From Schmidtea polychroa (taxonomy: Eukaryota), in the NCBI GenBank assembly GCA_044892525.1, contig CM097885.1, positions 8,620,001 to 8,684,000 on the forward strand: a stretch of 64,000 nt of DNA. The letters run 5' to 3'. The notes beneath the pieces were generated by a model. It had not been told where the DNA came from. It did no database searches and worked only from the letters and a program-made list of their open reading frames with translations. Position 1 is the stretch's first letter; each line of letters starts with the position of its first letter. Positions 16,185-63,978 of this stretch are shown in pieces. The position numbers were made by a program, and so were the translations under genes.

Positions 16185-16630
16185 AGTAGATGGATGTGAC
16201 ACCGCCAGATCATGTCACCGCTAGATCACCTACCCCCCACCCCCCCCCCCCCCGACAGAAAAATTTTTTTAAAGATTTTTTTTTCAAGGTCAAATTTTTA
16301 ACAAAGACAATGACTCATCAAGGTCATTGAAACAAAGAATTTTTTTTTGTTTTAATTATCGATTATTATTAAGTGATCTAGCGGTGACATACCATTTGAC
16401 TTCCCAGAACTTTTTCAATTTTCAAAATTATTTAAATATTTATACATCATTTTGAAGGCCAGGCAAAGATCTATCTTTTGAGCCATAGAAATAATTTTTA
16501 TCATCAGTGGTACAAAAGTTATTAATTTTTTAGTCAGAGACTGATTTATGGTTAAAATTTTCAAAAATGTTCAAAGTTTACTAAGTAATTTGCGGGTGAT
16601 TTGTCAATCATCCAATCAGGTACGACTTTG
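16185..16630 (+). repeat. Left TIR of the Polinton (about 445 bp)
   Basis: Reverse complement of 27432-28086 minus the internal duplication; followed by (ATT)n at 16685-16832. Confidence 0.93.
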
Positions 16631-16714
16631 TTTATCATTATTATTGGGAAAGATATTAACGCCCGCGCGGAATATTTTCAAAAATATTATTATTATTTTC
16701 AAAGTCTTAATCAA

Positions 16715-16832
<118 letters not shown>

Positions 16833-16913
16833 GGGTAATGCTCGCAAGGGTACTGGTCACGCTCAACAAGTCACAAGGGTATTATTAAACAAATCAACAA
16901 AACATACATTTAT

Positions 16914-17413
16914 TTAAACAATAAAATAATGTAAAATTAACAAAGGTAAACTAAATATTGATGTACTACTATTCGCAGCAATATTGTTTGAAATTGGTAA
17001 CGTCGAATTGATTTTCAGATATTCTATTGATCCTTTGATTGTTTGAATTTCTCCTAATAATAATTCGATCATTTTAACAAATAATCATGCTTCTTATCAA
17101 TAATTTTCATATTCTTTTTATTTTCAACAATAGAGTTATTGAAAACTTCAATATGATCAATCAATTTAATTTTTATATTTTGTATATATGCAAATGATAG
17201 TTCATAACTGTTTTCTAAATTCTCCAATCTTTGAGATATTCTTTTTCCTGGATGCTTTGACCATTTTGGTTTGTCAAGAATATATAAAATATCCATCAAC
17301 TTGGCTGTATTCGGACAAACACATATTGATTTATTAAAAGACTCCACTGTTATTGTTGTATTGTGTGAGCACACACTCGTTATAATAATTAGCAATATGA
17401 ATATAGTTTTCAT
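16914..17413 (-). pseudogene. Polinton accessory gene: predicted secreted/surface coiled-coil protein with a hydrophobic C-tail; one frameshift
   Basis: Signal peptide MKTIFILLIIITSVCS; a 1-nt shift at about 17072 continues the frame as MIELLLGEIQ...SSTSIFSLPLLILHYFIV*. Confidence 0.65.
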
Positions 17414-17518
17414 GGTGTATCAAATCAAAACCTTTCTTTTACATTTATAGTCTATCAACCAATCAAAATCATACGGTATTAGTATAAATAAAACATCATA
17501 TTTTAAATTATTGTAGAA

Positions 17519-18034
17519 ATGTCTCATTTTATGGAAAATCTTTTAAGCGAACTTATCAATAAGAATATTATGGAAAGCCTCAGTTTCCTGGTCGATCGGA
17601 CCGAAAAGATTATAGAAGGAAATCATATTGATTATGAGGATGTGCTCAATTCCGAATGCCTCGAAACGAAAAAATTTTATTTTCATAGGATTTTTAACTG
17701 TCTATGCGACGAAGAGATGAAGTGGACCCGAATACTAGTAGGGTTCGCTTATATGAAGATCATAATCGAAAGAAGTTTATGGGACTCTGAACATTATTAT
17801 CAGTGGTCTCAAGAAGTAATACTTTTATTAATATTTATTTTATTAATATTTATTTTCTAGATAATCAAATCAAAGTTTCAGCCATGGATTGAAGCCAATG
17901 GCGGATGGGGCGTGCTGAATCAACTCGCCAGAAATGCGAAGGAAATAGATCAACAGAAAATCAAATTTAAAAACTATTTAAAACTTGCAACAGGTGTTGC
18001 TATTTTGTATGTTTTATGCAGGTTTTTTAAATAA
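17519..18034 (+). CDS. Bcl-2 family protein (156 aa, 2 exons) carried by the Polinton
   Basis: Intron 17816-17860 (GT..TTCTAG); BH1-like DEEMKWTRILVGFAY, BH2 FQPWIEANGGWG, C-terminal anchor LATGVAILYVLCRFFK. Confidence 0.85.
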
Positions 18035-18111
18035 AAATTAATATAGTTATTTTGTTTGATTTTTAAATAAAATTTTAAATAAATTTACAAACACTAATTA
18101 ACTAAAATTTA

Positions 18112-18536
18112 TTAATTAACACATTCACAGTCATCATCTCCACATTTCATTATATTTTCAACGACATGATCAATACAATCATTCGTAATATTATCTTTAG
18201 GTTCATCTTTAGGTTCCTCTATAGGTTCCTCTACAGGTTCATCTATAGGTTCATCTATAGGTTCATAGATTTCCTCATCAATTTCTTGAGTTTCTTCCTC
18301 ATCAATTTCTTGAGTTTCTTCCTCATCAATTTCTTGAGTTTCTTCCTCATCATCAAATCCTGTATCTTGACTCTCAACTATCCAGCCGATATTTAAGGCA
18401 TTTGTAATAGATAATATGTCCTCAATTTTCACACCAGCTATTTCTGCTAACTTTTCCAACAAAAAGTTGATTACAAATTCTAAATAATAAATAATTCGGT
18501 AATTAATTAATCATGTTAACCTTTTTCTGCAGTCAT
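18112..18536 (-). CDS. Acidic low-complexity Polinton protein, 2 exons
   Basis: Exon 1 MTAEK(E), intron 18480-18520, then an in-frame ORF with (DEEETQEI)x3, EP repeats and a Cys-rich tail. Confidence 0.7.
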
Positions 18537-18669
18537 TTTCATCACTTTAAAACTATATTATAAGTTTTTTTATAGATTTTCTTTGTTAAATTTGCATGTC
18601 ATTTGCATTTATGTTGCAATTAATAAAGAGAAAAAACAAATATGACTAATACATTTATTAAATATAACA

Positions 18670-19080
18670 TTAAAATATTTGTGAAAGTCTAGCAGACATT
18701 ATTTTCCAAATAGGAGAATATACATCATTATTATCAACTTTATATCCCTGGATTGCAATTGTTATATACCAATTTTCATTTTCTTTGAAACTGATTTCAT
18801 CAAAAGCATCATAAAATCTTGCATATCTATTGTTGAACCATGCATGTTGATTACACGACAGATTCGAATCTATCCGTTTAAAAACATCATCAATAGTTTT
18901 GACATCAATCATTGAAAGCGTGCCGGATAAGAATTGAAATTTAGTTGGAATTAGCTTGACTGGTGCAACCAATTTCATATTGATTTCTTCTTTCAAAAAA
19001 TACATTTTGTAGTTGTGGAACATTTGAACTGGTTGTACCATTTCTTTAGGTTTTTCGGTGCTTGAAATTTTCTTGGTCAT
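18670..19080 (-). CDS. Polinton hypothetical protein, possibly an OB-fold ssDNA-binding protein
   Basis: Intact 136-aa ATG ORF; beta-rich C-terminus WYITIAIQGY...SPIWKI is reminiscent of viral SSBs (weak). Confidence 0.55.
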   Translation of the reverse strand: MTKKISSTEKPKEMVQPVQMFHNYKMYFLKEEINMKLVAPVKLIPTKFQFLSGTLSMIDVKTIDDVFKRIDSNLSCNQHAWFNNRYARFYDAFDEISFKENENWYITIAIQGYKVDNNDVYSPIWKIMSARLSQIF

Positions 19081-19329
19081 CGTGAATAATGAATAAATTT
19101 AAATGTTACAGGGTTTTTATACCTTTGACTCATGCCTATCAACCAATCAGATTATAGCATGTCTTTGTTTAAATTGCATTCAAAATGCATTGATGTTGCA
19201 TTGTCACATGTTTTGTTATACGTTCTATTTACAGATTTATTATTTATGTGTTTTATTATTAATGTTTAAATTATTACATGTTTTGTTATATGTTCTATTT
19301 ACAGATTTATTATTAATGTGTTTCATTAT

Positions 19330-19515
19330 TATTAATTTTTTTTACTATTATTTCTATTATTATTATTACTATTCATATTTCTATTATTACTATTATTATT
19401 ACTATTCATATTTCTATTATTACTATTATTATTATTATTTCTATTTCTATTATTACTATTATTATTATTATTACTATTACTATTATTATTATTTATTACT
19501 ATTATTTATTACTAT
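19330..19515. repeat. Imperfect (TAT/TAC)n microsatellite inside the Polinton
   Basis: Direct reading; it produces the spurious poly-Tyr ORF. Confidence 0.9.
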
Positions 19516-19553
19516 TTCAAATATAAAAAAACACAACAGATACAAAAATACAT

Positions 19554-19971
19554 TTATTCATATCCAAGATCTACAATCCGGGAGTAGTGAAACCTTCTCA
19601 GAGTTTTCACTAACTCCCATTCGACATATCGCCAATATCGATCGGCACAGCATGAGCATCCGATGATGCATTGGTACTCCGGCTCCATTTGTTTCATAGT
19701 TCTGTTGATTTTGACATCCCATAAAAATTGGTGGAATACCTCCATGATTCTTATTTGGGTTGAATAAAAAATCAAATCAGGTATGATTTCCGGTTCCCGA
19801 TCCTTGATTACTTCAGCAATTTGCGGATAATAATATTTTATCCTATTGATCATTATTTCTAAATATTTTTCTAAAATAATAAATATAAAAAAATGTGAAA
19901 ATAAAAATTTTAAATTTACCATAATCGTCAATATCTTTCATGAGATTCGCGGCGCTCGGAATTTTGTACAT
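19554..19971 (-). CDS. Polinton hypothetical protein with CxxxCxCC motif, 2 exons
   Basis: Exon 1 MYKIPSAANLMKDIDDY(E), intron 19871-19919, joined in frame to KYLEIMINR...CIIGCSCCADRYW. Confidence 0.7.
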
Positions 19972-20043
19972 AGTGAAATAAATGAATCCTAAACAAAAAA
20001 CCGTTTGTTTAAATCAATCAATAACCAATTAGAAATTAACCAA

Positions 20044-20481
20044 TTAGAAATCGACCAATGAAATTATCTCATTTCGAACATTGTCAACAAATTCTCTATA
20101 CTCCAAATTTCTCAACCCCAACATGACAACCTTTCCACTAGCAAACACGTTGACACATATAGGGTTATATTTTAATAGTCTTAGTGCCGGAAACAATTCC
20201 GGTTCAAACATACAATCACATTTTTTCGACATGTTATATAGATTGATACTATGTCCCATATCCATAGTAACGGTAATTGATTGGATTATAATATTATTTA
20301 TTCGATATTGTAATTTATTAATATCCAAAGGTTACTTACATCCCATGATTCTGCATTTACCAGTCTTGAAAAATATTATCGGATATTTCCCACTTCTATC
20401 GATAATTTGCTGGGGTTTCCCTGGTGGGAACCTCATATTCGATACATCAAAATTTCCTCGATAATTTATATTTGCTAACAT
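20044..20481 (-). pseudogene. TATA-binding-protein-like gene with one in-frame stop
   Basis: Repeat 1 IIFFKTGKCRIMG; repeat 2 IQSITVT...FEPELFPAL...VNVFASGKVVMLG (TBP: YEPELFPGL..LIFVSGKVVLTG); TAA at 20332-20334. Confidence 0.85.
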
Positions 20482-20580
20482 TATTAAATCATTTATGAAA
20501 ATTATTCTTTATATACAAATTGAGCACGAGTTCATTAAATCATCGAATATAAACAAATACACATATATAAAATTTTTGAA

Positions 20581-21207
20581 ATGGAATTAAGAAATGATGC
20601 AGTATACCAAATCGTTGGTCCGAGTGGTAGCGGAAAAACATTATTTGTTTGTAAAATTACTAAAATCAAATTTATTCAAATCAAAATTCAACAGGATTTA
20701 TTGGCATAGGGTGCTGATGAAGAACATGGATTAACTCAATCAAGTTTCTGTAAATTAAAAAACATGAAAATTGTAAAGGGATTCGATAAAAACTGGTCCA
20801 GCCGATTAAAGAAAGGTGATGTCATTATTATCGATGATTTGTATCAAGAAGCTAATAAAGAAAAAGATTTTAATAATTTATTTACAAAGATCAGCAGACA
20901 TGTCGGTGTAACAGTTATTTTCATAACACAAAATCTATTTCATCAAGGTGGGGCACATCGAACACGTAATTTAAATATACAATATTTAGTTATTTTCAAG
21001 AATCCTAGAGATGCAACAGTGATTGATTTTCTTGCACGTCAAGCATACCCTAACAATCGTAATTTTCTTATCAGTGCATTTCAAGATGCTACAAAAATAC
21101 CTCATGGATATATATTTCTTGATTTCACACAACAATGTCCCGATGATTTACGAGTAAAAACAGATATTTTCAACCCAAAAGGTGCCATGGTTTATAAACA
21201 AAGTTGA
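20581..21207 (+). pseudogene. A32/FtsK-like genome-packaging ATPase
   Basis: Walker A GPSGSGKT (20617-20640), Walker B VIIIDD, SRH..ITQN..RT..LN..Y.VIFKNPRD; compensating +1/-1 frameshifts at about 20655 and 20710. Confidence 0.92.
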
Positions 21208-21225
21208 AAACCTCTATGAATAATA

Positions 21226-21752
21226 ATGTTTCTAAAAGCAAGGGTGAAAAATATTAGGAAATTAAGAAAAAGTATTAGAAAGAGTATTAAAGTTCCAAAA
21301 GTTCCACCAACAACTAGTTATACACCGTCTAAAAAACTTGTAACTGAAAATTTCTCTGCAATGAATCTTATTTCGAAAAATCCTAAACCTAAACGTAAAA
21401 CTCGTAAAACCCGTAAAACCGGTAAAAAAGTAGTTAAAAATCATCGCAGTTTTCCATTTTTTAATGCATTGTTAAAGGCCCCGAGTATGAAAAGAATGAA
21501 TATATTGCAATCATTCCCAAATTTTGTTGTCGATGATTTACTCAATATTATACTTAAGTAGTCAAAGGCAAAATTAAAATCAGTAAATCAAAAAAGCATT
21601 TATTGAGCAAACATAGGAAACCATTGTTATCTTTAGTAAATAATAAAAATCGTAAGCAAATGAGGAAAATTATATATAAACAACAAGGTGGATTTATTGG
21701 TGCATTGATACCTCTGGCATTATCATTATTAGGTGGAGTTACACAAACATAA
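21226..21752 (+). pseudogene. Lys/Arg-rich putative core protein with C-terminal QQGG|FIGALIPLALSLLGG hydrophobic peptide; one frameshift
   Basis: Basic ORF 21226-21561 continues after a 1-nt shift at about 21558 to TAA at 21752; the xGG motif resembles adenoviral protease cleavage sites. Confidence 0.7.
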
Positions 21753-21755
21753 ACA

Positions 21756-21983
21756 ATGGGTGCTAATCCTTCATTGCCCGACATTAAATTTAATTTTAAA
21801 TCTTCTTGTTGTAATGGAGAAGATTTGGACGAACCCAGAAGACGAAGCCGGTTTCGGTGGAGTGGCAAAATTAAAGAAAAGAGTTCCGAATTCGAAAAAA
21901 GAAACCCAGAAGTGGTTATCAGATCAGCTTGCGTACAGTTTGAACAAACCAATGCGGAAAAGATTTCCAACAAGAGCGTATAA
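21756..21983 (+). CDS. Small putative myristoylated protein overlapping the integrase start in another frame
   Basis: MGANPS fits MGxxxS; SSCC; basic RRRSRFR; starts 3 nt after the upstream stop. Confidence 0.5.
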   Translation: MGANPSLPDIKFNFKSSCCNGEDLDEPRRRSRFRWSGKIKEKSSEFEKRNPEVVIRSACVQFEQTNAEKISNKSV

Positions 21984-22201
21984 AACATTTGGTATTGACG
22001 ATTTATGGCAAATGGATTTGATGGAGATGATACCTTATTCGAAAATTAGCAATGGGAATAAATATATTTTAACATGTATTAATGTATAGAGCAGGTTTGC
22101 ACGAGCAATACCAGTCAAGGCAAAATCTGCAGAAGTAATGTCCAAGGCAATTAATATTTTATTTAAAGATGGACATCCTAATAACTTGCAAACAGATTTA
22201 G

Positions 22202-22257
<56 letters not shown>

Positions 22258-22887
22258 TTAGGTAAAGAATTCTACAATAGTAAAGTTAAGCAAATCCTCG
22301 ATAAACTGAAAATAAATCACTACTCGGTACATTCTCAATACAAAGCTGCCCATGTTGAAAGATTTAATCGAACATTGAGAGATAGATTAAAGAAATTGTT
22401 CGTGCATCAAGGTAATAAAAAATGGGTAAATGCTTTACCGAAAATAATAACAAGTTATAATCATTCATCACATCGAGGACTGAATGGATTGAGACCGGTT
22501 GATATTACATCAAAAACACCAGTATCTAAGAAATCTGTAAAAATTGCAAAACCTAAATATAAAGTCGGTGACCATGTTAGAATTAGTAAAATTAGTGCAT
22601 CACCATTTATTAAAAATTTTGATACAAATTGGAGTGATGAAGTCTTTGTAATTTCAAAAATAAATACTAAACAGAATCCTGTAATGTATGTAATCAAAGA
22701 CAATGATAATAATATTGTACAGGGGAAATTTTATGAGCAGGAATTACAAGTCATTCCTCCCCCAAAAGTATTTAGAATTCAAAAAATATTGAAAACTAAA
22801 AAGGTCGGTAAGGATAAACAATACTATATCAAATGGCATGGTTATCGAAACCCGTCATGGATATCAGCAAAAGACCTAGTAAAGTGA
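21814..22887 (+). pseudogene. Retroviral-like (c-) integrase with C-terminal chromodomain; one in-frame TAG, one intron
   Basis: AGFGG..KL N-terminus; D (WQMDL), D (LQTDLG|KEF), E (HVERFNRTL); YYIKWHGY..SWI chromodomain; TAG at 22087-22089; intron 22202-22261. Confidence 0.95.
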
Positions 22888-23901
22888 ATTTTTATACTAT
22901 TTTGCCGAGCAATAGTTGTCCATTAATTCATCCAGAAAATCAAGCAAGCAAATTCATCATCGAACTCCAAAACCCTATCTATTTGGATAATGACTGGGAA
23001 GTTGCTCTGTTGGATTTTACATTTGTATACAATTTATTCCCAATCTATAGCAAATCAGTTATTGAATATAATAAGAAAGTAGCAGTTACGGAATATATTA
23101 GTGTTCTTATCGATAAAGATAGTTATAACTTGACGAGTTCATCGAAATCAAGGAAACCTATAATTTATGATGATGGTCAATATTTATACATGAATTGCTT
23201 GAATAAGCCATTCGAAATTATATTTTCTACAGTGGCTGATGCTAAACGTCTTGGATTTTCTGATTTACGTAATGTATTTAATGATACAGTCAAAAAAAAA
23301 TCTCTCTACACTTCCAAAAACTAATAATTTAGTGGAATTCAAATTTAAGCTATCATACATTGAAATAACTGAGCATGCATATACTTTTAAAGATAATTTA
23401 TATATTACAGACCTCGAACAATTACAATCTTATTTAGGTGAGAATTGTAGCGATATTTTAACAGTTTTTGAGCTTCAAAAAGATAAAGTATTTAGATTTA
23501 GTATAAATTCTAATCTTAGTCAAGTTAAATTTGACTCAAATTTGACAAAAACATTAGGATTGACTAAACCAGTATGTACACAAAATGAACAAATTTGTGA
23601 AGGAACAAACAAACCGAAAATCCTTAAACATCATCAGCAAATGTTCATTTACAGTAATATCGTGGAACCAGTTATTGTTGGCGATTCTAGTGTTCCTTTA
23701 ATGATATCTATATGGATTGAAAAACATGATCAAGATGAAGTTGTACAAATCAATGTAGAAAATCCCATGTATTTACCTGTTTCAACATCTTGTATAAACA
23801 ATATAGAAATAAATATAAGAGATGATTCTGATCAATTAATCGAATTTCCAAAAGGTTCAAAAACTCATTTGACATTACATTTTCGTAAAATAAATGGCTA
23901 A
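22884..23901 (+). pseudogene. Minor capsid protein (penton-like); frameshift in an A-run
   Basis: FYTILPSNS..PEN..SKF..L..PI.L..DWEVAL N-terminus and MFIYSNIVEP...YLPV...IEINIRD...HLTLHFRK C-terminus; shift at about 23295; start is GTG overlapping the integrase stop. Confidence 0.88.
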
Positions 23902-24262
23902 TTCTGATATTATTAGTATGTATAGTGGTAGCCAATCTGGTGGTGAATTACCATATTTTATTGGTAAACAGTACGGATCAGGATGGTTGAGAACAATTGG
24001 AAGATTTGCCCTGCCTATTCTTAAACGTATTGGTAGTTTTGGTATGAAAACTGCAAAAGATGTTATTATGAATGAACAGAAAATATTACCATCTCTAAAA
24101 TCAAATGCTTTAGCTGAATTAGGGAAAGTTTTACCCGGGGTTGCAGGTATGTTTCAAAAAGAAAAACCTCCAGCTCCAGCTCATGCTCCAAAACGTAAAA
24201 GACATGGAATATCACGTATAAACAAACGAATGAAAGGCCATGGAACTATATTTGCAAAATGA
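23894..24262 (+). CDS. Polinton core / membrane-active precursor protein
   Basis: QSGG and QYGSG motifs, amphipathic WLRTIGRFALPILKRIG, basic tail; lies between the two capsid genes with overlapping start/stop codons. Confidence 0.75.
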   Translation: MANSDIISMYSGSQSGGELPYFIGKQYGSGWLRTIGRFALPILKRIGSFGMKTAKDVIMNEQKILPSLKSNALAELGKVLPGVAGMFQKEKPPAPAHAPKRKRHGISRINKRMKGHGTIFAK

Positions 24263-25479
24263 TTTGTGGTAAATCTGAATTATGTATATTTGATAGACCA
24301 TCGCTCCAGGCTGTAATAGAATTTGGGGCATTTGAGGAAGTTTTTCCTATGAATTCAATTACCGATAGTAGAAATGATATCGTGTTTTATATTAATGGTT
24401 CGCAAACCGAATATTTAGATTTGAACGATACTTTATTGACTGTTCAGATTAAGGTTGTAGATAAAGATAGAAAAGCTTTGGATGCCAATGCAGATGTAAT
24501 ACCGAACAATTTCCTGTTTCATACTCTTTTTAAAGATGCAATGTTGGGATTTAATAATATCAAGATTGAGGGCGGAAATAATACATTCATTCACAAGGCA
24601 TTAATAGAAACTATTTTAAATTACAATTCCGATACTAAAAATACATGTCTTACTCCTATGGGTTATGGCAGTGATGATGAAAGAAAAAAGTGGGTAAAAG
24701 GCTCAAAGGTTTTCACCATGTGCTCATCATTACAACTTGATTTTATGGATCAACCAAAATATTTACTACCGGGAGTTAATGTACATATTAGACTGAAAAG
24801 GTCTGATTCTGCATTATCTCTTACTAGTGCAACTACTACACCAATATGTCAATTAGTTGATGCAAAATTATTGGTGAGAAGAGTTCGAGTAGACCCCTCA
24901 GTATTAGCAGGTCATCAATTGGGTCTTAATTCAAAACATGCAATTTATCCATTAAAAACAAAGGAAATTGTACAATTTGCTATTGCTAAAGGTGCTTCAT
25001 CATTCTATAAAGAACAAATATTTGGTGACAGAAGAATGCCTAATTTTATTCTGGTAACATTTCAAAGTGAAGCACAATATAATGGATCATATACTGCGTC
25101 CACCTCAATTTTCAAAAACTTTGGTGTTACTTCATTGACTTTGTCGAAAAATACTGATTATAGAGAAACATATATTCAAGATTTCGAGAATGATAATTAC
25201 TGTGCGACATATATGCAGAGTATTGTTAGAAATCTGGGTTATTTAGATAAAAATTTGAATTGTGGAATAACTCTAGAAGATTTTAAAAGCAAATACCCAT
25301 TTTTTACATTAGTTTTAGCCCCTGATTTTGATTTAAATCAAAGTCAATTACCTCAAAATGGAAATTTACGACTGGATATAAAGTTTGCAAAAGCTATTAC
25401 TGAACCAGTACATGTTATAATATATGGAGTATTTGAAAATGAAGTTCAAATTACTGCAAATAGAACAGTGTTAGTATAA
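24259..25479 (+). CDS. Major capsid protein (double jelly-roll), intact 406 aa
   Basis: KSELCIF..P..Q..I N-terminus, YLDLNDTLL, QPKYLLPGV..IRL.R, GNLRLDIKFA and C-terminal ITANRTV typical of Polinton MCP. Confidence 0.92.
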   Translation: MICGKSELCIFDRPSLQAVIEFGAFEEVFPMNSITDSRNDIVFYINGSQTEYLDLNDTLLTVQIKVVDKDRKALDANADVIPNNFLFHTLFKDAMLGFNNIKIEGGNNTFIHKALIETILNYNSDTKNTCLTPMGYGSDDERKKWVKGSKVFTMCSSLQLDFMDQPKYLLPGVNVHIRLKRSDSALSLTSATTTPICQLVDAKLLVRRVRVDPSVLAGHQLGLNSKHAIYPLKTKEIVQFAIAKGASSFYKEQIFGDRRMPNFILVTFQSEAQYNGSYTASTSIFKNFGVTSLTLSKNTDYRETYIQDFENDNYCATYMQSIVRNLGYLDKNLNCGITLEDFKSKYPFFTLVLAPDFDLNQSQLPQNGNLRLDIKFAKAITEPVHVIIYGVFENEVQITANRTVLV

Positions 25480-25506
25480 ATGTATATTGAAACATAAAAA
25501 GTTGTC

Positions 25507-25891
25507 ATGGAGTAAGTTGTTTTTTATACTCTGGATTTATTTAAGTAGTTCTGTTCAGGTCAATAAAATCGGAAAACAGATATTGGGAAATGAATTTGTT
25601 TGAGTTTTTCCTCTTGATAAAATTCCATATTTGAGCAATAATCAAGCAATAATCGTCAATACTCAATCGTCTCATCTTGGTGGAGAACATTGGATAGCTA
25701 TATATGTGAAACCTGGTAATATATTCGTGTTCGATCCTATGGGTTTTTATTACCCGGCTTTGTTGATATCAAAACTGCAAACAATGGGGAAACCTATTGT
25801 GTATAATAAAATTATGTTTCAAAATCCTTTGACCAAAACATGTGGTCAACATTGTTTAGCTTGGTTATTGTACAAAAAATCTGATGTTTAA
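25507..25891 (+). pseudogene. Adenain-like (Ulp1-fold) cysteine maturation protease
   Basis: H (GEHW), D (FDPMG), Q (FQN), C (TCGQHC); inferred intron 25512-25548 gives an MDSVQVNKI start; TGA at 25601-25603 replaces G of FV(G)VFPLD. Confidence 0.88.
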
Positions 25892-26154
25892 TAAATTTGA
25901 TGTTTAATAAATGTATCCTTTCCTTTGTTGTTGTGATTAATATTATTATTTTAATATTATTATTATTTTTAATTAATATTATTATTATTTCGAAAAATAT
26001 TATTATTTTTAATTAATTTTATTATTATTCATATAAATATTATTAATTCGAGATAAAGACTACCTATGCCTGAAGCATGCACAGTGCAAGTTAACAAAGG
26101 CATGACTAACAAAGACAGTCACATGTAATTTCAGAGTGATTTACATGTATGCGT

Positions 26155-26250
26155 GTGATTGGTTGAGAGAGTAAAATATTCAGTGTATATGCGTGTGTGT
26201 CTATATTCTGATTGGCTGGGACAGGAAAATATTCATTCTCTTTATAAACA
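26155..26250 (+). promoter_or_regulatory. Putative Pol II promoter (two inverted CCAAT boxes + TATA) for the terminal acidic gene
   Basis: GATTGGTT at about 26157, GATTGGCT at about 26210, TTTATAAA at 26241, ATG at 26325; similar CCAAT+TATA pairs precede the Bcl-2 and RING genes. Confidence 0.5.
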
Positions 26251-26324
26251 TTGACAAATCTAAAATTTGTCACAATTATTTTAAAATTTTCAAAAATTTT
26301 CAACAATTTTCAACAATTTTCAAA

Positions 26325-26994
26325 ATGGACAAAAATAATATTTTAAGAAGCATGATGGCTTGCGATAATGGTATATTATTTATTTTTATTTATTTTTTAT
26401 ATATTTATTTGTAGATGATTTATGGTACCAGGTGACCGAAAACGAGAATGGATTTAATTTGAATTGCACCTATGGTAATTTTATTTTTTTTTTATTTATT
26501 AATATTATTATTATTTAGATGTTATAATGTTGAGTGACGAAGAAGACGAAATAATAATTATTAGCGATGAAGAGGAATCACCAATTATTAATCATCACGA
26601 CTTATCAAGTAAATTATTATTATTTTTATTATTTAATTTAAAAAAACTGTTTTAGGAAATAGTCAAAGAGAAAATTCCCCCAATTTTGTTGGAGAAACAG
26701 AAAATTTAATAGGTGCAATCATTGAAGATACACGTAAATTTTTATTATTATTATATGTAATTTTTAAAAATTGATTTAGGAAGTTCAATTATTTTGGAGG
26801 ACATATATGATCCTATTATGGATGATCTATATGCTCCCATTAATGTGGATGTCAAGGAAATTGCTCCAGAGACAAAATTATTTAATACCCCTATTCGGGA
26901 TGCTTCTATTCATGAGGTTTTTGATGCCCCCACTTTAACCGGGGATGTCCTCTCTGAGAATGATACAGATTCAGATTCTGAATCTAAATGTTAG
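26325..26994 (+). CDS. 5-exon acidic Polinton protein (162 aa) with tandem SIM-like motifs
   Basis: Exons 26325-26370, 26415-26474, 26519-26608, 26656-26733 and 26780-26994 join without stops via four phase-1 GT-AG introns; DVIMLSDEEDEIIIISDEEES. Confidence 0.78.
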
Positions 26995-27094
26995 TATTTT
27001 TTATTTTATTTATTTTATAAATATTTATTTTAATAATTTCTTAAATTAAAAATAACATTCTGTAGAATATTTAAATTATTTTAAACATAAATTT

Positions 27095-27187
27095 TATATG
27101 AAACATGATGAAAATTATATGAAACATGATGAAAATTATATGAAACATGATGAAAATTATATGAAACATGATGAAGTTTATATGAAA
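27095..27187. repeat. 20-bp tandem repeat (TATATGAAACATGATGAAAA)x4
   Basis: Direct reading. Confidence 0.9.
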
Positions 27188-27236
27188 TTAATGATTCTAA
27201 CTAATCTAGAGAATGTTATTTTTATTTAAGTTTAGA

Positions 27237-27323
<87 letters not shown>

Positions 27324-27342
27324 TTTAATAATAATAATAATA

Positions 27343-27431
<89 letters not shown>

Positions 27432-28086
27432 CAAAGTCGTACCTGATTGGATGATTGACAAATCACCCGCAAATTACTTAGTAAATTTTGAACATTTTTG
27501 AAAATTTTAACCATAAATCAGTCTCTGACTAAAAAATTAATAACTTTTGTACCACTGATGATAAAAATTATTTCTATGGCTTAAAAGATAGATTTTCGTC
27601 TGGCCTTCAAATTGATGTATAATTATTTAAATAATTTTGAAAATTGAAAAGGTTCTGGGAAGTCAAAAGGTATGTCACCGCTAGATCACTTAATAATATT
27701 TTTGAAAAATAATAATAATTTTAACCAAATTAGTGTCTGACTAAAAAATTAATAACTTTTGTACCACTGATGATAAAAATTATTTCTATGGCTCAAAAGA
27801 TAGATTTTCGCCCGGCCTTCAAAATGATGTATAAATATTTAAATAATTTTGAAAATTGAAAAAGTTCTGGGAAGTCAAAAGGTATGTCACCGCTAGATCA
27901 CTTAATAATAATAATCGATAATTAAAACAAAAAAAAAATCTTTGTTTCAATGACCTCGATGAGTCATTGTCTTTGTTAAAAATTTGACCTTGAAAAAAAA
28001 ATTTCTTAAAAATTTTTTCCCCCCCCGGGGGGGGGGGGTAGGTGATCTAGCGGTGACATGATCTGGCGGTGACACATCCATCTACT
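27432..28086 (-). repeat. Right TIR of the Polinton with an internal about 215-bp tandem duplication
   Basis: About 27505-27697 is repeated at about 27719-27908; preceded by (AAT)n at 27237-27430. Confidence 0.93.
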
Positions 28087-55722: not shown

Positions 55723-57852
55723 TTATATCTCTGTGTTATTAAAATTGTCTGTATCCCCGGCTATGATATTTATTTGGCAATTGAACTGTGCTCGATATTT
55801 TGACAGTTCAATATATTGTAGTTCATACATTCTAAGTTTAGATAAGTCTAGCACTGTTTGACCAATGTAGCTAGGCCTATCTAAACAAACTACATCTTTA
55901 TTCAGCAAAAGGGCAATCAAATCATCAGCAATTTTAATTGAACGTCTAAATGTTGGCTTTGAAGTGTATTTAACCAATTTTTCGGCATTGTTGCACAATC
56001 TCAGATTTATTCTTTTCTTCAGATTCTCCACTGTCTTGCCGTAAACACTATTATTTAAAAGTTTATAAAAATCTCTATCTAAACTATTTTGTGATTCAGC
56101 TCGAAGTTGGGTATTTGTGTTGATATAATCCTTCAATATCGGCTTTTGTGTAAATTTTATTGCCCGATGTATATTGGTGACTTCCACTCCAAGGGCCATA
56201 TATAATTTCAAAAGTCTCCAATGAATAACATAATTAGTTTTCGCATGATGGGTTAATAATAATTTTGGTACATTTGAATCTGGTGGACACATTTTCTCTG
56301 CTACGACTGGGAAATCGTCTAATAGGTCGTGGATATTTGACGGGATGACTAAATCAACTTCCAATGTGTATCCATAAGTTAAATTTTCTAGTTTCGAACT
56401 AATACAGTCAACTAAAATGGATAATAATTCCACTTCATTATATATCCACTCAAAATCGCTACATGGCAAGTATTGGCTTAACGCCCACCCATACAGGTTG
56501 TTTATATCGATATAAAGCAACTCTGTTTCATCATCTGTTACTGCGAAGTGTTTATTTACAAATGTGAGACCACCACGGATCCCATCCTCGAAGAAATTAT
56601 ACATCTCCATGTCCATCAGTAATTCCACTGGTTCTTCTAAGGTCATGAGCGCAGATGCCCAAGACATTCCAGGGATTCCAAAAAAATTGAGTGGCTCGAG
56701 TCCATTATGTGCTTTTGATCTTGCTCGAAATTGTTGGAAAAAATCGGCAAGTAAAAACACATCAAGTTTTAAATAAATTTGTAAATAATCCATTAGAGTT
56801 TCGCAACTTGTTTCTTGCCATATTTGTTGCGCTATTATATACTCTTCATTTGTAACGCCTTCCCAAATAGCGGGCAATTCATATGTTGTTTCTAATATTT
56901 CCTCACTTGTGGCAAAATCATAAGGAAAAATTCCTTTGTTGTTTATGATGGTTCCAGTATTGAATACTGAACGGGTCAAAGGCAATTCGTTCAATGTTTT
57001 TACTGCATTATGTAATGAAGTATTGACAAACTGATATGAGTCAATAAATCTTATTGTAAATTTACCCAGCCATGCTATCAATGTTAAAAATTTCTCTGTG
57101 CTTGTTGGTATGCAGCTGAGACTCCAATGAGGAAATTGATTGAGCCCATATTTCAAAATGTGATGTAGATCATACCCTTTCAGATTATGAAATACGATGG
57201 GTAATGTTTCTCTGATTTTCCTTTGTTGATTGCATACATTGCATGAGGCTCCGAGATATTTGCCAGTGAAATGATCATGGTCTTTCACTTTCTCTGGCAT
57301 TGGCTTTTTGCACAAGTAACAATTGACAGCTGTGTGGAATTGCAGCTTTTCCTGATTTGTCAAAAATTTCATTTGACAATGCCCACTTGTCTTATAATAA
57401 ACCTTCACTATATTGTTGACAATATTTTCTACATCCATCAGAAATCTGTATACACAATCTGGTCCAATAAAATGACTATATTTCGTTGACCCAGTAAAAT
57501 TATTTACCAGTAACAGCCCCGCTGCTATAGGTAAATGTTTTTGGTGTTGTCTTTCATCAAGAGGTAAAACAGCTTCGAAGTCAGCATATATAACAAAAGG
57601 CGGAGTTACCATTTTTGACCAGTCATTAAATTTTAAATCTGAGTTTTCTGGCAACGTGTATAATGTTGTGCCCAATTGGTTTTTCTTGCATAAAGCTACA
57701 TGCCTGTCAAAAGCATCTTCTCTTCTAAAACCATTTAAACATGTCTCGCACCATCTGCATTGAATACGGACTGGGCAACTATGAGTTTTTCTACAATTCA
57801 TTAATCGCTGTAAATCTGGAACTGCAGTATAGTGGTATTGGCCATTCGATTC
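55723..57852 (-). pseudogene. Protein-primed family B DNA polymerase of Polinton type, truncated at both ends
   Basis: Exo I YADFE, EndoVII-like CYLC..DHDHFTGKYLG..CN, Exo II FHNLKGYD, KGIFPYD, Exo III YLKLDV, GIRGG, motif A DINNLYG, motif B KLLNNSVYGKT, motif C GDTD followed at once by unrelated sequence. Confidence 0.93.
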
Positions 57853-59162
57853 TAAATTTATTTTTCACCGCTATACACCATAAAAATGGACAAGGGCAGC
57901 ATTTAGCTCACTATGTAAACTTTATTTAATGAGTTACAATATTATTGAATGCCCTTAGTTATTTCAAAATTGTTCAATTTTTTTTTTATCACAATTCATA
58001 TTTTTGAAATGAAGTTTCATTTATACTTTCATTATTTTTTATAATAAAATTCATGTTGAACGTCTTAATATAGTTAAAAAATATATATATTGTCTAATAA
58101 ATTTCATTTAAAATTTGAACTTTGTACTAATTTATTATATATGGCCCTTGGAGTGAAAGTCTCAATAATTCTCAATAATTTTAAGAAATTTATTTAAATC
58201 TAAATCTAAATCTAAATATCTAAATATTTACCAATAAACATCTGATTAAATATCATTTTTTTTTACTATTTTAAATTTTCTTAAACAAAGAACTATAGAA
58301 ATATGACAATTATTTAACAATCCATATACTTTTAATTTCACTTACATGAAATACTAGAAGTTTCGTGATGCAATCAAATTTTAAATTAATCTCATCTTAG
58401 TTGATTAATGTAAAAATAATATTGCAAATAAAAATTCGATTTTAAAATGAAGTTTTATTTATACTTTCATCATTTTTTTTTTATAATAAAATTAAAGTTG
58501 ATCGTCGTAATATAGTTAAAATAAACTAACAATAACTATATTAATATTGTCTAAAAAAATAATTTCAGTAAATATATTAACTTTGTACTTTTTTTTTTCA
58601 GTTTATACATCAATATATTTGTATTTATGTGATACGTATATTATTTATGCTTCAAAGGACTTGGGCAAAAATTTGAGTTGCATAAATGAACATTTTTATC
58701 TTCAAATCTGAAATTTTTATAATACAATTAAAATTGTTAATATTATATATTGAAAATCTGAAACATCAATTGTTTTTGTAGTCATACTTTTCTTTAACAG
58801 GTAAAGTATATAATTTCTTCACCTATTTTTCATGAAAATTGTTTTAGAAAATTATTCTCAGAGATATCAAAAGCAGAAGTTTATATTTTTTTAATTTGAC
58901 ATCAGTGACAGAATTCTGTTTATTTCTGGTATAATAAATATCTTTTCTATAATTAGATTACTTATAGTAAAAAATAATATTCCTTATCAATAATTAAAAT
59001 ATTGTCTAAAAAATAATTTCAGTAAATATATTAACTTTGTACTAATTTTAATTAATAATTAATATATTACTAATTTTCATTAATTTTAAGAAATTTATTT
59101 AAATGAATTCATCTAAATATTAACATCTGATTAAATATCATTTTTTACTAATTTAAATTTTC

Positions 59163-61267: not shown

Positions 61268-61906
61268 ATGATTTCTATAAATAAAACTGATGAATGTGTA
61301 ACACATTTGGTAACTTTATTATTTTGTCAATATTTTTTTTATATATACCATTTATAGCAAGGAAGTCCTACTAGAAATAAGGAAAAATTATGTCCAACCT
61401 ATTCCGAAATTTCATTGAAATTTTTTAACAACACAGTTGAAGATTTTATAAATAATCATGATACTTACAGTGATAAGCAACTCATAAATATTTTAAAGAT
61501 TTTCAAACATTCCTCTATTGAATATTTGTTTGATTTATTTAATTATGAGAAATCCATTTTAAAGTTATCTTGTTATTTAATGTACTTAGAAAAAATAGCA
61601 GTAAACAATGATTCACTGAATGAATACTTTTGGAGTTGTATGTATTTAAGGTTGAAACCTGGATATAGTAGATTGATTTATGATTGGATAGCAAAAACCG
61701 ATTTGATTGAAAATAAGCTAACGAAAAAACTGAACGAGGTTAAGAAAAGGTATTTAACTTGTTCAATTTGTAAAGAAAATCGAGTTTCGGTTTTGTATTT
61801 ACCATGTGGTCATGTAATTGTTTGTTCTAAGTGTCACGAGAAGAATGTTCGCAAGTGTCAAGCCTGTTCAACATTGATTAATGAATATCATACTATATAT
61901 ATTTAG
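61268..61906 (+). CDS. C-terminal RING-finger (IAP/MDM2-like C3HC4) protein, 196 aa, copy 1
   Basis: ATG 61268, intron 61310-61357, CSIC..LPCGHVIVCSKC..CQAC..IYI at the extreme C-terminus; no BIR domain. Confidence 0.85.
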
Positions 61907-62060
61907 TTTACCTTTGTTAATTTTACATTATTTTATTGTTTAAATAAATGTATGTTTTGTTGATTTGTTGAGCGTGACCAGTACCCTTGTGAGCATTACC
62001 CATAGGGGGACAAAATATTTTGTCGGATAGACTCGGAGTATATAGACTCGGTGTATATAG

Positions 62061-62157
<97 letters not shown>

Positions 62158-62306
62158 CTTTAAACAGCTTGCAAGGTTACTAGTCATGCTTATTATACAT
62201 TTGATGGTTACAATTTCTACATTTTGAAAACTATATTTTGATTGGCTATCACAATTTTATAAATGTAAGAACAAAAGTAATTTAGTTATTAAGAAATTTA
62301 TTACTA

Positions 62307-62945
62307 ATGATTTCTATAAATAAAACTGATGAATGTGTAACACATTTGGTAACTTTATTATTTTGTCAATATTTTTTTTATATATACCATTTATAGCAAG
62401 GAAGTCCTACTAGAAATAAGGAAAAATTATGTCCAACCTATTCCGAAATTTCATTGAAATTTTTTAACAACACAGTTGAAGATTTTATAAATAATCATGA
62501 TACTTACAGTGATAAGCAACTCATAAATATTTTAAAGATTTTCAAACATTCCTCTATTGAATATTTGTTTGATTTATTTAATTATGAGAAATCCATTTTA
62601 AAGTTATCTTGTTATTTAATGTACTTAGAAAAAATAGCAGTAAACAATGATTCACTGAATGAATACTTTTGGAGTTGTATGTATTTAAGGTTGAAACCTG
62701 GATATAGTAGATTGATTTATGATTGGATAGCAAAAACCGATTTGATTGAAAATAAGCTAACGAAAAAACTGAACGAGGTTAAGAAAAGGTATTTAACTTG
62801 TTCAATTTGTAAAGAAAATCGAGTTTCGGTTTTGTATTTACCATGTGGTCATGTAATTGTTTGTTCTAAGTGTCACGAGAAGAATGTTCGCAAGTGTCAA
62901 GCCTGTTCAACATTGATTAATGAATATCATACTATATATATTTAG
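62307..62945 (+). CDS. RING-finger protein, copy 2
   Basis: Same protein as copy 1; period 1039 bp. Confidence 0.85.
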
Positions 62946-63099
62946 TTTACCTTTGTTAATTTTACATTATTTTATTGTTTAAATAAATGTATGTTTTGTT
63001 GATTTGTTGAGCGTGACCAGTACCCTTGTGAGCATTACCCATAGGGGGACAAAATATTTTGTCGGATAGACTCGGAGTATATAGACTCGGTGTATATAG

Positions 63100-63190
<91 letters not shown>

Positions 63191-63339
63191 CTTTAAACAG
63201 CTTGCAAGGTTACTAGTCATGCTTATTATACATTTGATGGTTACAATTTCTACATTTTGAAAACTATATTTTGATTGGCTATCACAATTTTATAAATGTA
63301 AGAACAAAAGTAATTTAGTTATTAAGAAATTTATTACTA

Positions 63340-63978
63340 ATGATTTCTATAAATAAAACTGATGAATGTGTAACACATTTGGTAACTTTATTATTTTGTC
63401 AATATTTTTTTTATATATACCATTTATAGCAAGGAAGTCCTACTAGAAATAAGGAAAAATTATGTCCAACCTATTCCGAAATTTCATTGAAATTTTTTAA
63501 CAACATAGTTGAAGATTTTATAAATAATCATGATACTTACAGTGATAAGCAACTCATAAATATTTTAAAGATTTTCAAACATTCCTCTATTGAATATTTG
63601 TTTGATTTATTTAATTATGAGAAATCCATTTTAAAGTTATCTTGTTATTTAATGTACTTAGAAAAAATAGCAGTAAACAATGATTCACTGAATGAATACT
63701 TTTGGAGTTGTATGTATTTAAGGTTGAAACCTGGATATAGTAGATTGATTTATGATTGGATAGCAAAAACCGATTTGATTGAAAATAAGCTAACGAAAAA
63801 ACTGAACGAGGTTAAGAAAAGGTATTTAACTTGTTCAATTTGTAAAGAAAATCGAGTTTCGGTTTTGTATTTACCATGTGGTCATGTAATTGTTTGTTCT
63901 AAGTGTCACGAGAAGAATGTTCGCAAGTGTCAAGCCTGTTCAACATTGATTAATGAATATCATACTATATATATTTAG
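63340..63978 (+). CDS. RING-finger protein, copy 3
   Basis: One T>I change; period 1033 bp; the array runs off the window. Confidence 0.85.

Follow-up and report, generated by a model that had tools for sequence, protein, structure and literature searches.

A TBP-like protein encoded by a widespread clade of Polintons is a candidate late transcription factor for genes preceded by an ATAAAC box

A widespread clade of Polintons carries a gene for a protein with a predicted TBP fold, and an oriented ATAAAC box stands before the packaging, integrase and putative capsid genes of these elements. We consider it probable that the TBP-like protein is a late transcription factor that reads this box and recruits host TFIIB and RNA polymerase II. 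We also lean slightly towards a fuller reading of the sequence data, in which the clade possesses a one-protein orthogonal late switch: a re-specified TBP would read (T/C)ATAAAC without any other viral factor and would use host TFIIB and RNA polymerase II, and in the sub-clade at hand this TBP would be a 145-residue saddle lacking the regulator-binding helices. The evidence comprises a modelled fold and, from sequence comparison, purifying selection, retained TFIIB-binding glutamates, an altered DNA face, the oriented box and a canonical TATA box before the TBP-like gene itself; that another Polinton lineage in this host lacks both gene and box also counts in favour. The gene lies in a stretch of 64,000 nucleotides from Schmidtea polychroa (hereafter the window; contig CM097885.1, positions 8,620,001 to 8,684,000), for which a preliminary description had proposed either a late transcription factor specific to the element or a decoy of host TBP.

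The element in the window has the terminal inverted repeats and AG...CT ends of a Polinton, and its 6-base flanks, corresponding to the target duplication, are identical at five of six letters (Table 1). It contains an rve integrase; protein-primed PolB, the other hallmark gene, is absent inside the window copy, whereas 17 of 20 other copies show it in the 10 kb examined. A distant relative of the putative major capsid protein (L079) has a weak Capsid_N match (E 0.007). The ATPase, integrase, putative penton and TBP-like gene are all broken in the window copy. Because PolB is absent and the ATPase, integrase and penton genes are also broken, we regard this copy as a decaying derivative, which would itself depend on other copies. 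As first described, the TBP-like gene is head to head with the structural block, its ATG lying 100 bases from the ATPase ATG at 20581. Of 26 metagenomic loci with both genes, 2 show the head-to-head arrangement, 23 have the TBP-like gene in tandem ahead of the ATPase, and 1 has it after the protease. Since only 2 of 26 loci outside the host genome share the head-to-head layout, it carries no weight, and we dropped it as a functional clue.

Table 1 Features of the Polinton copy in the window
Feature	Positions	Strand	Remarks
Whole Polinton copy	16185..28086		AGTAGA...TCTACT ends, terminal inverted repeats
TBP-like gene	20044..20481	-	145 codons, with a single in-frame stop (codon 50, 20332-20334)
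Canonical TATA box TATATAAAG	20509..20517	-	About 35 bases before TBP-like ATG; putative early promoter for host TBP
Box TATAAACAA	20548..20556	+	32 bases before ATPase ATG; candidate binding site for the element-encoded TBP
A32-like packaging ATPase	20581..21207	+	Broken in window copy
Box TATAAACAA	21193..21201	+	Inside ATPase 3' end, 32 bases before next (basic) ORF
Two small basic ORFs	21226..21752	+	Putative core proteins
Further box	21675-21683	+	Within region of the two basic ORFs
Box CATAAACAA	21748..21756	+	Before integrase region
Retroviral-type (rve) integrase with chromodomain	21814..22887	+	Interrupted in window copy
Box GATAAACAA	22813..22821	+	Inside integrase 3' end, before putative penton
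Putative minor capsid (penton)	22818..23901	+	Split over two frames; named by position and size, no Pfam match
Box TATAAACAA	23793..23801	+	Inside putative penton, 100 bases before pX-like ATG
Putative pX/core protein gene	23894..24262	+	Tentative name; no Pfam match
Box TATAAACAA	24217..24225	+	Inside pX-like gene, 41 bases before capsid ATG
Putative major capsid protein	24259..25479	+	27% identical to L079 protein
Adenain-like protease	25604..25891	+	Peptidase_C5, E 3.7e-06

Several further features of the element and its surroundings were recorded. A conserved ORF of 136 residues at 18670-19098 (minus strand), which resembles an OB-fold single-strand binding protein, adjoins the TBP-like gene in many relatives and has a canonical TATA and a CCAAT-like sequence upstream. 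In many environmental elements (among them L049, L060, L087 and L096) the TBP-like gene is adjoined by a conserved ORF of 150-170 residues with an exonuclease-like DxE motif near its N-terminus and no Pfam match; this ORF is a candidate partner of the TBP-like protein. An ORF at 17507-17860 (plus strand) has a weak Bcl-2 match (E 0.024, under the cut-off), and adintovirus maps in the supplement of Starrett et al., as far as available, also bear Bcl2 labels (PMC8502044). Long (ATT)n tracts lie inside the element at 16715-16832, 19325-19516, 22203-22257 and 27237-27431; one falls within the integrase gene and may be intronic, because the integrase match splits at the same place in other copies. 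Outside the element, a PolB-like stretch at 55741-57855 (minus strand) is 49-54% identical to the PolB of metagenomic relatives, with no other Polinton gene matched near it, and at 61754-63888 a short sequence that matches a RING finger of L057 occurs three times, at intervals of about 1040 bases.

The TBP-like frame runs on the minus strand from an ATG at 20481 to a terminal stop at 20044-20046. The preliminary description had seen two TBP-type repeats in about 145 codons, and both of the motifs quoted, IIFFKTGKCRIMG and FEPELFPAL...VNVFASGKVVMLG, are present in the translated frame. Scanned with its in-frame stop read as X, the window's sequence matched the Pfam TBP family (PF00352) in two stretches (E 1.6e-14; 53.9 bits, cut-off 22.9), and 35 of 36 PDB sequence matches of the protein were TBPs. 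An AlphaFold2 model built on a natural open copy with 92 relatives reached a pLDDT of 96.2. All 145 of its 145 residues aligned onto residues 66-240 of yeast TBP (1YTB; Z 13.2-13.3, rmsd 2.4-2.5 Å), and Foldseek returned TBPs in every listed row at E ≤ 0.001 (44 matches). Over residues 1-145, the Pfam and structure matches together describe two TBP repeats forming one saddle, as in PF00352. In the model, lobe 2 is complete and lobe 1 retains its β-sheet and lacks both helices, with no helix of at least four residues before residue 81. The protein is shorter than the TBP core of about 180 residues, as had been pointed out, but not just short: its first repeat is modelled without helices 1 and 2, and so the 145-codon protein would not have a complete N-lobe. 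Structure prediction, one of the checks that had been proposed, returned a clear match to the TBP fold rather than none. We conclude that the window gene is a Polinton-encoded gene whose product is predicted to adopt the two-lobed TBP fold.

We compared residues on the DNA-facing surface between 132 family rows and 24 canonical rows, using yeast numbering for replaced positions; one frameshifted row was removed, and five library rows were reassigned to the canonical set after the tree had been made. Phenylalanines F38, F97 and F113 are kept in the family, and the equivalent of F99 is proline in 122 of 132 rows, leaving three of the four intercalating phenylalanines of canonical TBP. The paired asparagines and hydrophobic DNA face of canonical TBP are likewise altered: the N69 equivalent is kept in 118 of 132 rows, and the N159 equivalent is serine or threonine in 131. 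The replacements are mostly polar, with the V122 equivalent changed to arginine (131/132), T124 to methionine (132/132), V161 to threonine or serine (131/132), L205 to asparagine (130/132), I194 to arginine (93/132) and V203 to cysteine, serine or histidine (122/132); the V71 equivalent is also fixed or biased to another residue. Changes at I194, V203 and L205, which are the TBPm3 positions for base pair 2, alter TBP specificity (PMC1636458, in the part of the text available). The glutamates of the C-lobe that bind TFIIB (available text of PMC7221094) are kept as in canonical TBP, E93 in 119 and E95 in 130 of 132 rows (equivalent to E186 and E188). According to the same text, helix 2 carries three of the basic residues contacted by TFIIA, TAF1, Brf1/2 and Mot1 (PMC7221094). 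A distant relative of 169 residues (L089) has both N-lobe helices, and linker lengths are near-canonical in distant clades of the family, so the trimming belongs to this sub-clade, whereas the altered DNA face is family-wide. We conclude from these comparisons that the predicted DNA face has been rewired throughout the family, with the TFIIB-binding glutamates retained.

We searched the AT-rich, 781-Mb host genome for the TBP-like gene and obtained 4156 candidates, and all 150 of the best 150 that were scored are open. Because those 150 were picked as the best, which introduces a bias, we also sampled copies by their capsid gene, taking 40 of 98. Of these, 34 have the ATPase, and the TBP-like gene is present in 34 of the 34 (32 open, 1 with a stop and 1 split); the remaining 6 have neither gene. 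The family has at least hundreds of copies in the host genome, and the expectation of intact copies elsewhere is borne out. Seven allele types are 53-91% identical to the type in the window. For 17 of 21 allele pairs dN/dS is 0.08-0.24, the other 4 being saturated. Within families, pN/pS is 0.10 among 8 copies and 0.81 among 20 very young copies (F1b); the latter value is as expected for decay after insertion and is not itself support. We conclude from these ratios that the TBP-like gene is under purifying selection. TBP-like alleles are also swapped between otherwise close elements (L006, L138, L143 and L186), dS between F1 and F2 being 2.38 for the TBP-like gene and 0.46 for the ATPase, and between F1 and F1b 0.26 and 1.16; such swapping fits interchangeable alleles reading one box.

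Outside the host genome, the searches recovered 107 relatives (37-63% identity) as well as 60 clusters at E ≤ 1e-30. Of 175 metagenomic loci we analysed the best 80, and a core Polinton gene is present in 38 of these (25 of 34 among loci of at least 3 kb); GTDB contributed a single contig, 3.8 kb long, whose gene order is the same. IMG/VR yielded one unrelated large-virus TBP only and no relatives of the Polinton ATPase or capsid, and no relatives were found in phage records. A canonical-looking TBP on a 44.7-kb viral contig (L021:9902-10447), which adjoins PolB and ribonucleotide reductase genes, is unrelated to the Polinton family. In a quick, midpoint-rooted tree (97 rows, 175 columns; 46 family rows without genomic context), the family lies within a 73-row group (SH-aLRT 99) apart from all canonical rows and from the six TBP/TRF-family loci of the host (L122-L127), of which L125 and L126 are strongly diverged. 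This grouping agrees with the suggestion of an element-specific origin. The stop in the window copy would accord with recent capture of a host TBP fragment, or with neutral cargo. However, this explanation does not square with a gene open in 32 of 34 copies, with the dN/dS values, with the divergence of the relatives or with a group that leaves out all six host loci; we give it practically no credence. A host fragment missing from other copies, which had been named as the outcome that would undo the proposal, was not what the ATPase-bearing copies revealed. We conclude that a widespread Polinton clade, as judged by sequence relationships, carries a TBP-like gene separate from host TBP/TRF and not recently captured from the host.

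A shared AT-rich motif upstream of the structural genes had been suggested as a check, and such a motif was found: an oriented ATAAAC, which stands in front of the ATPase and of the greater part of the structural block. Scripts assigned the start codons, not all of them certain, and cut the upstream regions, which were thinned to dissimilar ones, from 50 to 26 for the ATPase and from 92 to 55 for the TBP-like gene. Of 26 independent ATPase loci, 24 have ATAAAC at positions -75 to -16, compared with a mean of 1.3 and a maximum of 4 after shuffling, and none has it in the reversed orientation. It is preceded there by T (18), C (6) or G (1) and followed by A (22) or G (3). Within 120 bases upstream, it was found for the major capsid protein in 11 of 11 cases, pX in 9 of 9, penton in 14 of 16, the basic ORF in 10 of 12, the integrase in 10 of 15 and the protease in 4 of 7. 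The TBP-like gene has ATAAAC within the same distance in 6 of 55 cases (shuffled 3.8), and is preceded by TATAWAW in 33 of 55 independent genes (shuffled mean 8.0). The PolB gene of L075 is also preceded by the box, and this, together with the figure for the protease, makes a division into early and late genes less clear-cut; upstream regions of PolB in the host genome were left out because their starts are uncertain. In the window element, 9 sites lie on the plus strand, 8 of them between 20549 and 24218, and 4 on the minus strand. The co-occurrence of gene and box should not be read as many independent events, since the loci were chosen for the gene and are related by descent. Similarly, 6 of 11 distant-clade loci and 0 of 37 near-clade loci have C before the ATAAAC of the ATPase, but we did not count this covariation of box and protein as support, because it represents one lineage split.

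Where the box falls within the coding 3' end of the preceding gene, it is maintained at silent positions. In 19 related elements, the dipeptide Ile-Asn uses the codons ATA AAC in 49 of 86 cases close to the ends of ORFs, versus 14 of 195 elsewhere. We considered whether the box might act in RNA, as a 5' leader or 3'-end signal, or whether the protein might be a repressor or timer that sits on the box and keeps integrated structural genes off. Such roles could account for the strand specificity of the box, for its frequent location within the 3' end of the preceding gene, and for a distance to the ATG that varies between genes from about -30 to -100. A polyadenylation signal, as one form of this, was rejected, because the base before ATAAAC is never A at 25 ATPase sites and the box is present, as in divergent loci, without an upstream gene on the same strand. 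A pure repressor, for its part, would not need the TFIIB glutamates that nearly all rows keep. We regard this group of explanations as rather improbable.

The host genome contains a second abundant Polinton lineage (L258-L269 and L239-L244; at least 150 scored ATPase matches) with PolB, A32, a PLA2-integrase fusion and a jelly-roll capsid. We found no TBP profile match in 22 stretches of this lineage, two of the copies being covered between their inverted repeats, apart from a match in a neighbouring first-lineage element. ATAAAC at -75 to -16 was found in 0 of 72 upstream regions, which represent one lineage with 5-8 near-identical copies; in two of the copies listed, however, ATAAAC stands 9 bases upstream of the ATPase ATG. 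Nearly all genes of the second lineage start in an AT-rich ...AAAATG context, which recalls the TAAATG starts of poxvirus late genes.

The box could alternatively be read by a host factor, be it TBP, one of the six TBP/TRF paralogues or a forkhead protein, with the element's TBP doing something else. ATAAACA fits the forkhead consensus site, and six TBP-family loci offer the host several potential readers. A forkhead reader, however, is at odds with the strict orientation of the box and with the lack of preference for GTAAAC (3/26, shuffled 0.9). Host TBP itself could read the box weakly, because TATAAACG retains 27% activity with plant TBP (PMC10005294, available text). Against any host reader stand the occurrence of the same box across distant environmental elements, the lineage in the same host that has neither gene nor box, and the canonical TATA used by the presumed early genes of the element. 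We judge a host reader to be unlikely.

A late factor encoded by the element would work as follows. Host TBP would first transcribe the TBP-like gene from its canonical TATA box. The product would then bind (T/C)ATAAAC(A) before the packaging, integrase and putative capsid genes, and the bound protein would recruit host TFIIB and RNA polymerase II to the structural block. As TBP-induced kinks lie at base pairs 1/2 and 7/8 (PMC10005294, available text), the lobe without F99 would be expected to meet positions 7-8 of the box, so that the lost phenylalanine would coincide with the C of the box. Without helix 2, the protein of this sub-clade would escape the hold of Mot1/BTAF1, TAF1, TFIIA and Brf. 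A late factor of this kind implies a preference of the protein for TATAAACA over TATAAAAG or scrambled DNA. A Pfam match to the TFIIB family was found neither among 70 scanned ORFs (62 from metagenomic Polinton loci) nor among 15 window ORFs, though a diverged TFIIB could escape such a scan. A box at -32 to -37 would leave a leader of few bases only, which counts against the proposal, as does the variable distance between box and ATG from gene to gene. Since at least hundreds of copies reside in the host genome, the family product could also act on box-bearing host promoters.

The protein might instead act as a decoy or in a dominant-negative manner, sequestering host TFIIB or the regulators of TBP and so dampening host transcription, with no role at the box. 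Retention of the TFIIB glutamates would suit such a function, and the weakly Bcl-2-like ORF makes host-manipulating cargo plausible. Yet a decoy should keep host-like surfaces, and the regulator-binding helix 2 is missing from the model for this sub-clade; the DNA face is strictly conserved in a state unlike that of host TBP; and the box would be left unexplained. We consider a decoy quite improbable. Of the two functions originally put forward, late transcription factor is thus the one we favour, and the decoy has fared poorly.

If correct, the proposal would provide a natural altered-specificity pair of TBP and TATA box and would directly attest to a self-contained early-to-late programme in animal Polintons. 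It bears on whether these elements are autonomous viruses and on how they time their capsid genes without an RNA polymerase of their own. The combination of a conserved factor and a six-letter box makes the idea directly testable, and the box could serve as a marker for annotating structural genes. The protein is also a natural experiment on TBP, bearing on the extent to which the saddle can be trimmed and on the way in which a DNA face can be re-specified at the positions of TBPm3, a laboratory mutant.

The window element resembles Polintons/Mavericks (adintoviruses, MELD viruses) in its rve integrase, A32 ATPase, adenain, putative capsid genes and terminal inverted repeats, and shares PolB with them through other copies rather than the window copy. 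The label 'TBP', for a gene that may belong to our family, appears in the legend of a MELD-virus figure (Fig. 5) of Starrett et al. 2021, and section 10 of that paper, in the text available, does not analyse the gene so labelled (PMC8502044). We found no mention of TBP in the text of PMC11161782, PMC11131425, 10.64898/2026.06.19.733378 or 10.64898/2026.10.13.758929, and no account of the family or its cognate box in the literature searched; supplements, Repbase and subscription papers beyond that search may hold one.

Like cellular TBP/TRF (PF00352, 1YTB), the Polinton protein has a two-lobed saddle, three of the four phenylalanines and both TFIIB glutamates; it differs in the proline at the F99 equivalent, in its altered DNA face and, in this sub-clade, in being 30 residues shorter. 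It also resembles the TBPs of large DNA viruses (Nucleocytoviricota, mirusviruses), with 22 BFVD fold matches at E ≤ 0.001. Loss of the N-lobe regulator signature in those proteins has been proposed to evade Mot1/BTAF1; they mostly pair with a viral TFIIB, and the glutamate is conserved in about 40% (PMC7221094, available text). In the Polinton family, by contrast, the glutamate is near-invariant and the ORFs scanned gave no TFIIB match. The large-virus TBP of L021, unlike the Polinton family, retains the canonical DNA face and falls among the cellular TBPs in the tree.

By analogy, the Polinton protein would work like the vTBPs of beta- and gammaherpesviruses (KSHV ORF24, EBV BcRF1, HCMV UL87), without being a member of that group. 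According to the available parts of these papers, herpesvirus vTBPs combine a TBP fold having a polar DNA face with a TATT late box (PMC12529657) and work in a six-protein complex (PMC7498053), and in ORF24, a large protein of several domains, the TFIIB glutamates are absent and a clash with TFIIB is predicted (PMC12529657). The Polinton protein is instead a bare core of 145-170 residues that keeps the glutamates and has no recognised partner genes, and so differs from the large, glutamate-less vTBPs with their Pol II-binding domain and six-protein complex. What it would share with them is a variant TATA box before late genes, the box being a different one, ATAAAC, and the genes behind it in Polintons being presumed late.
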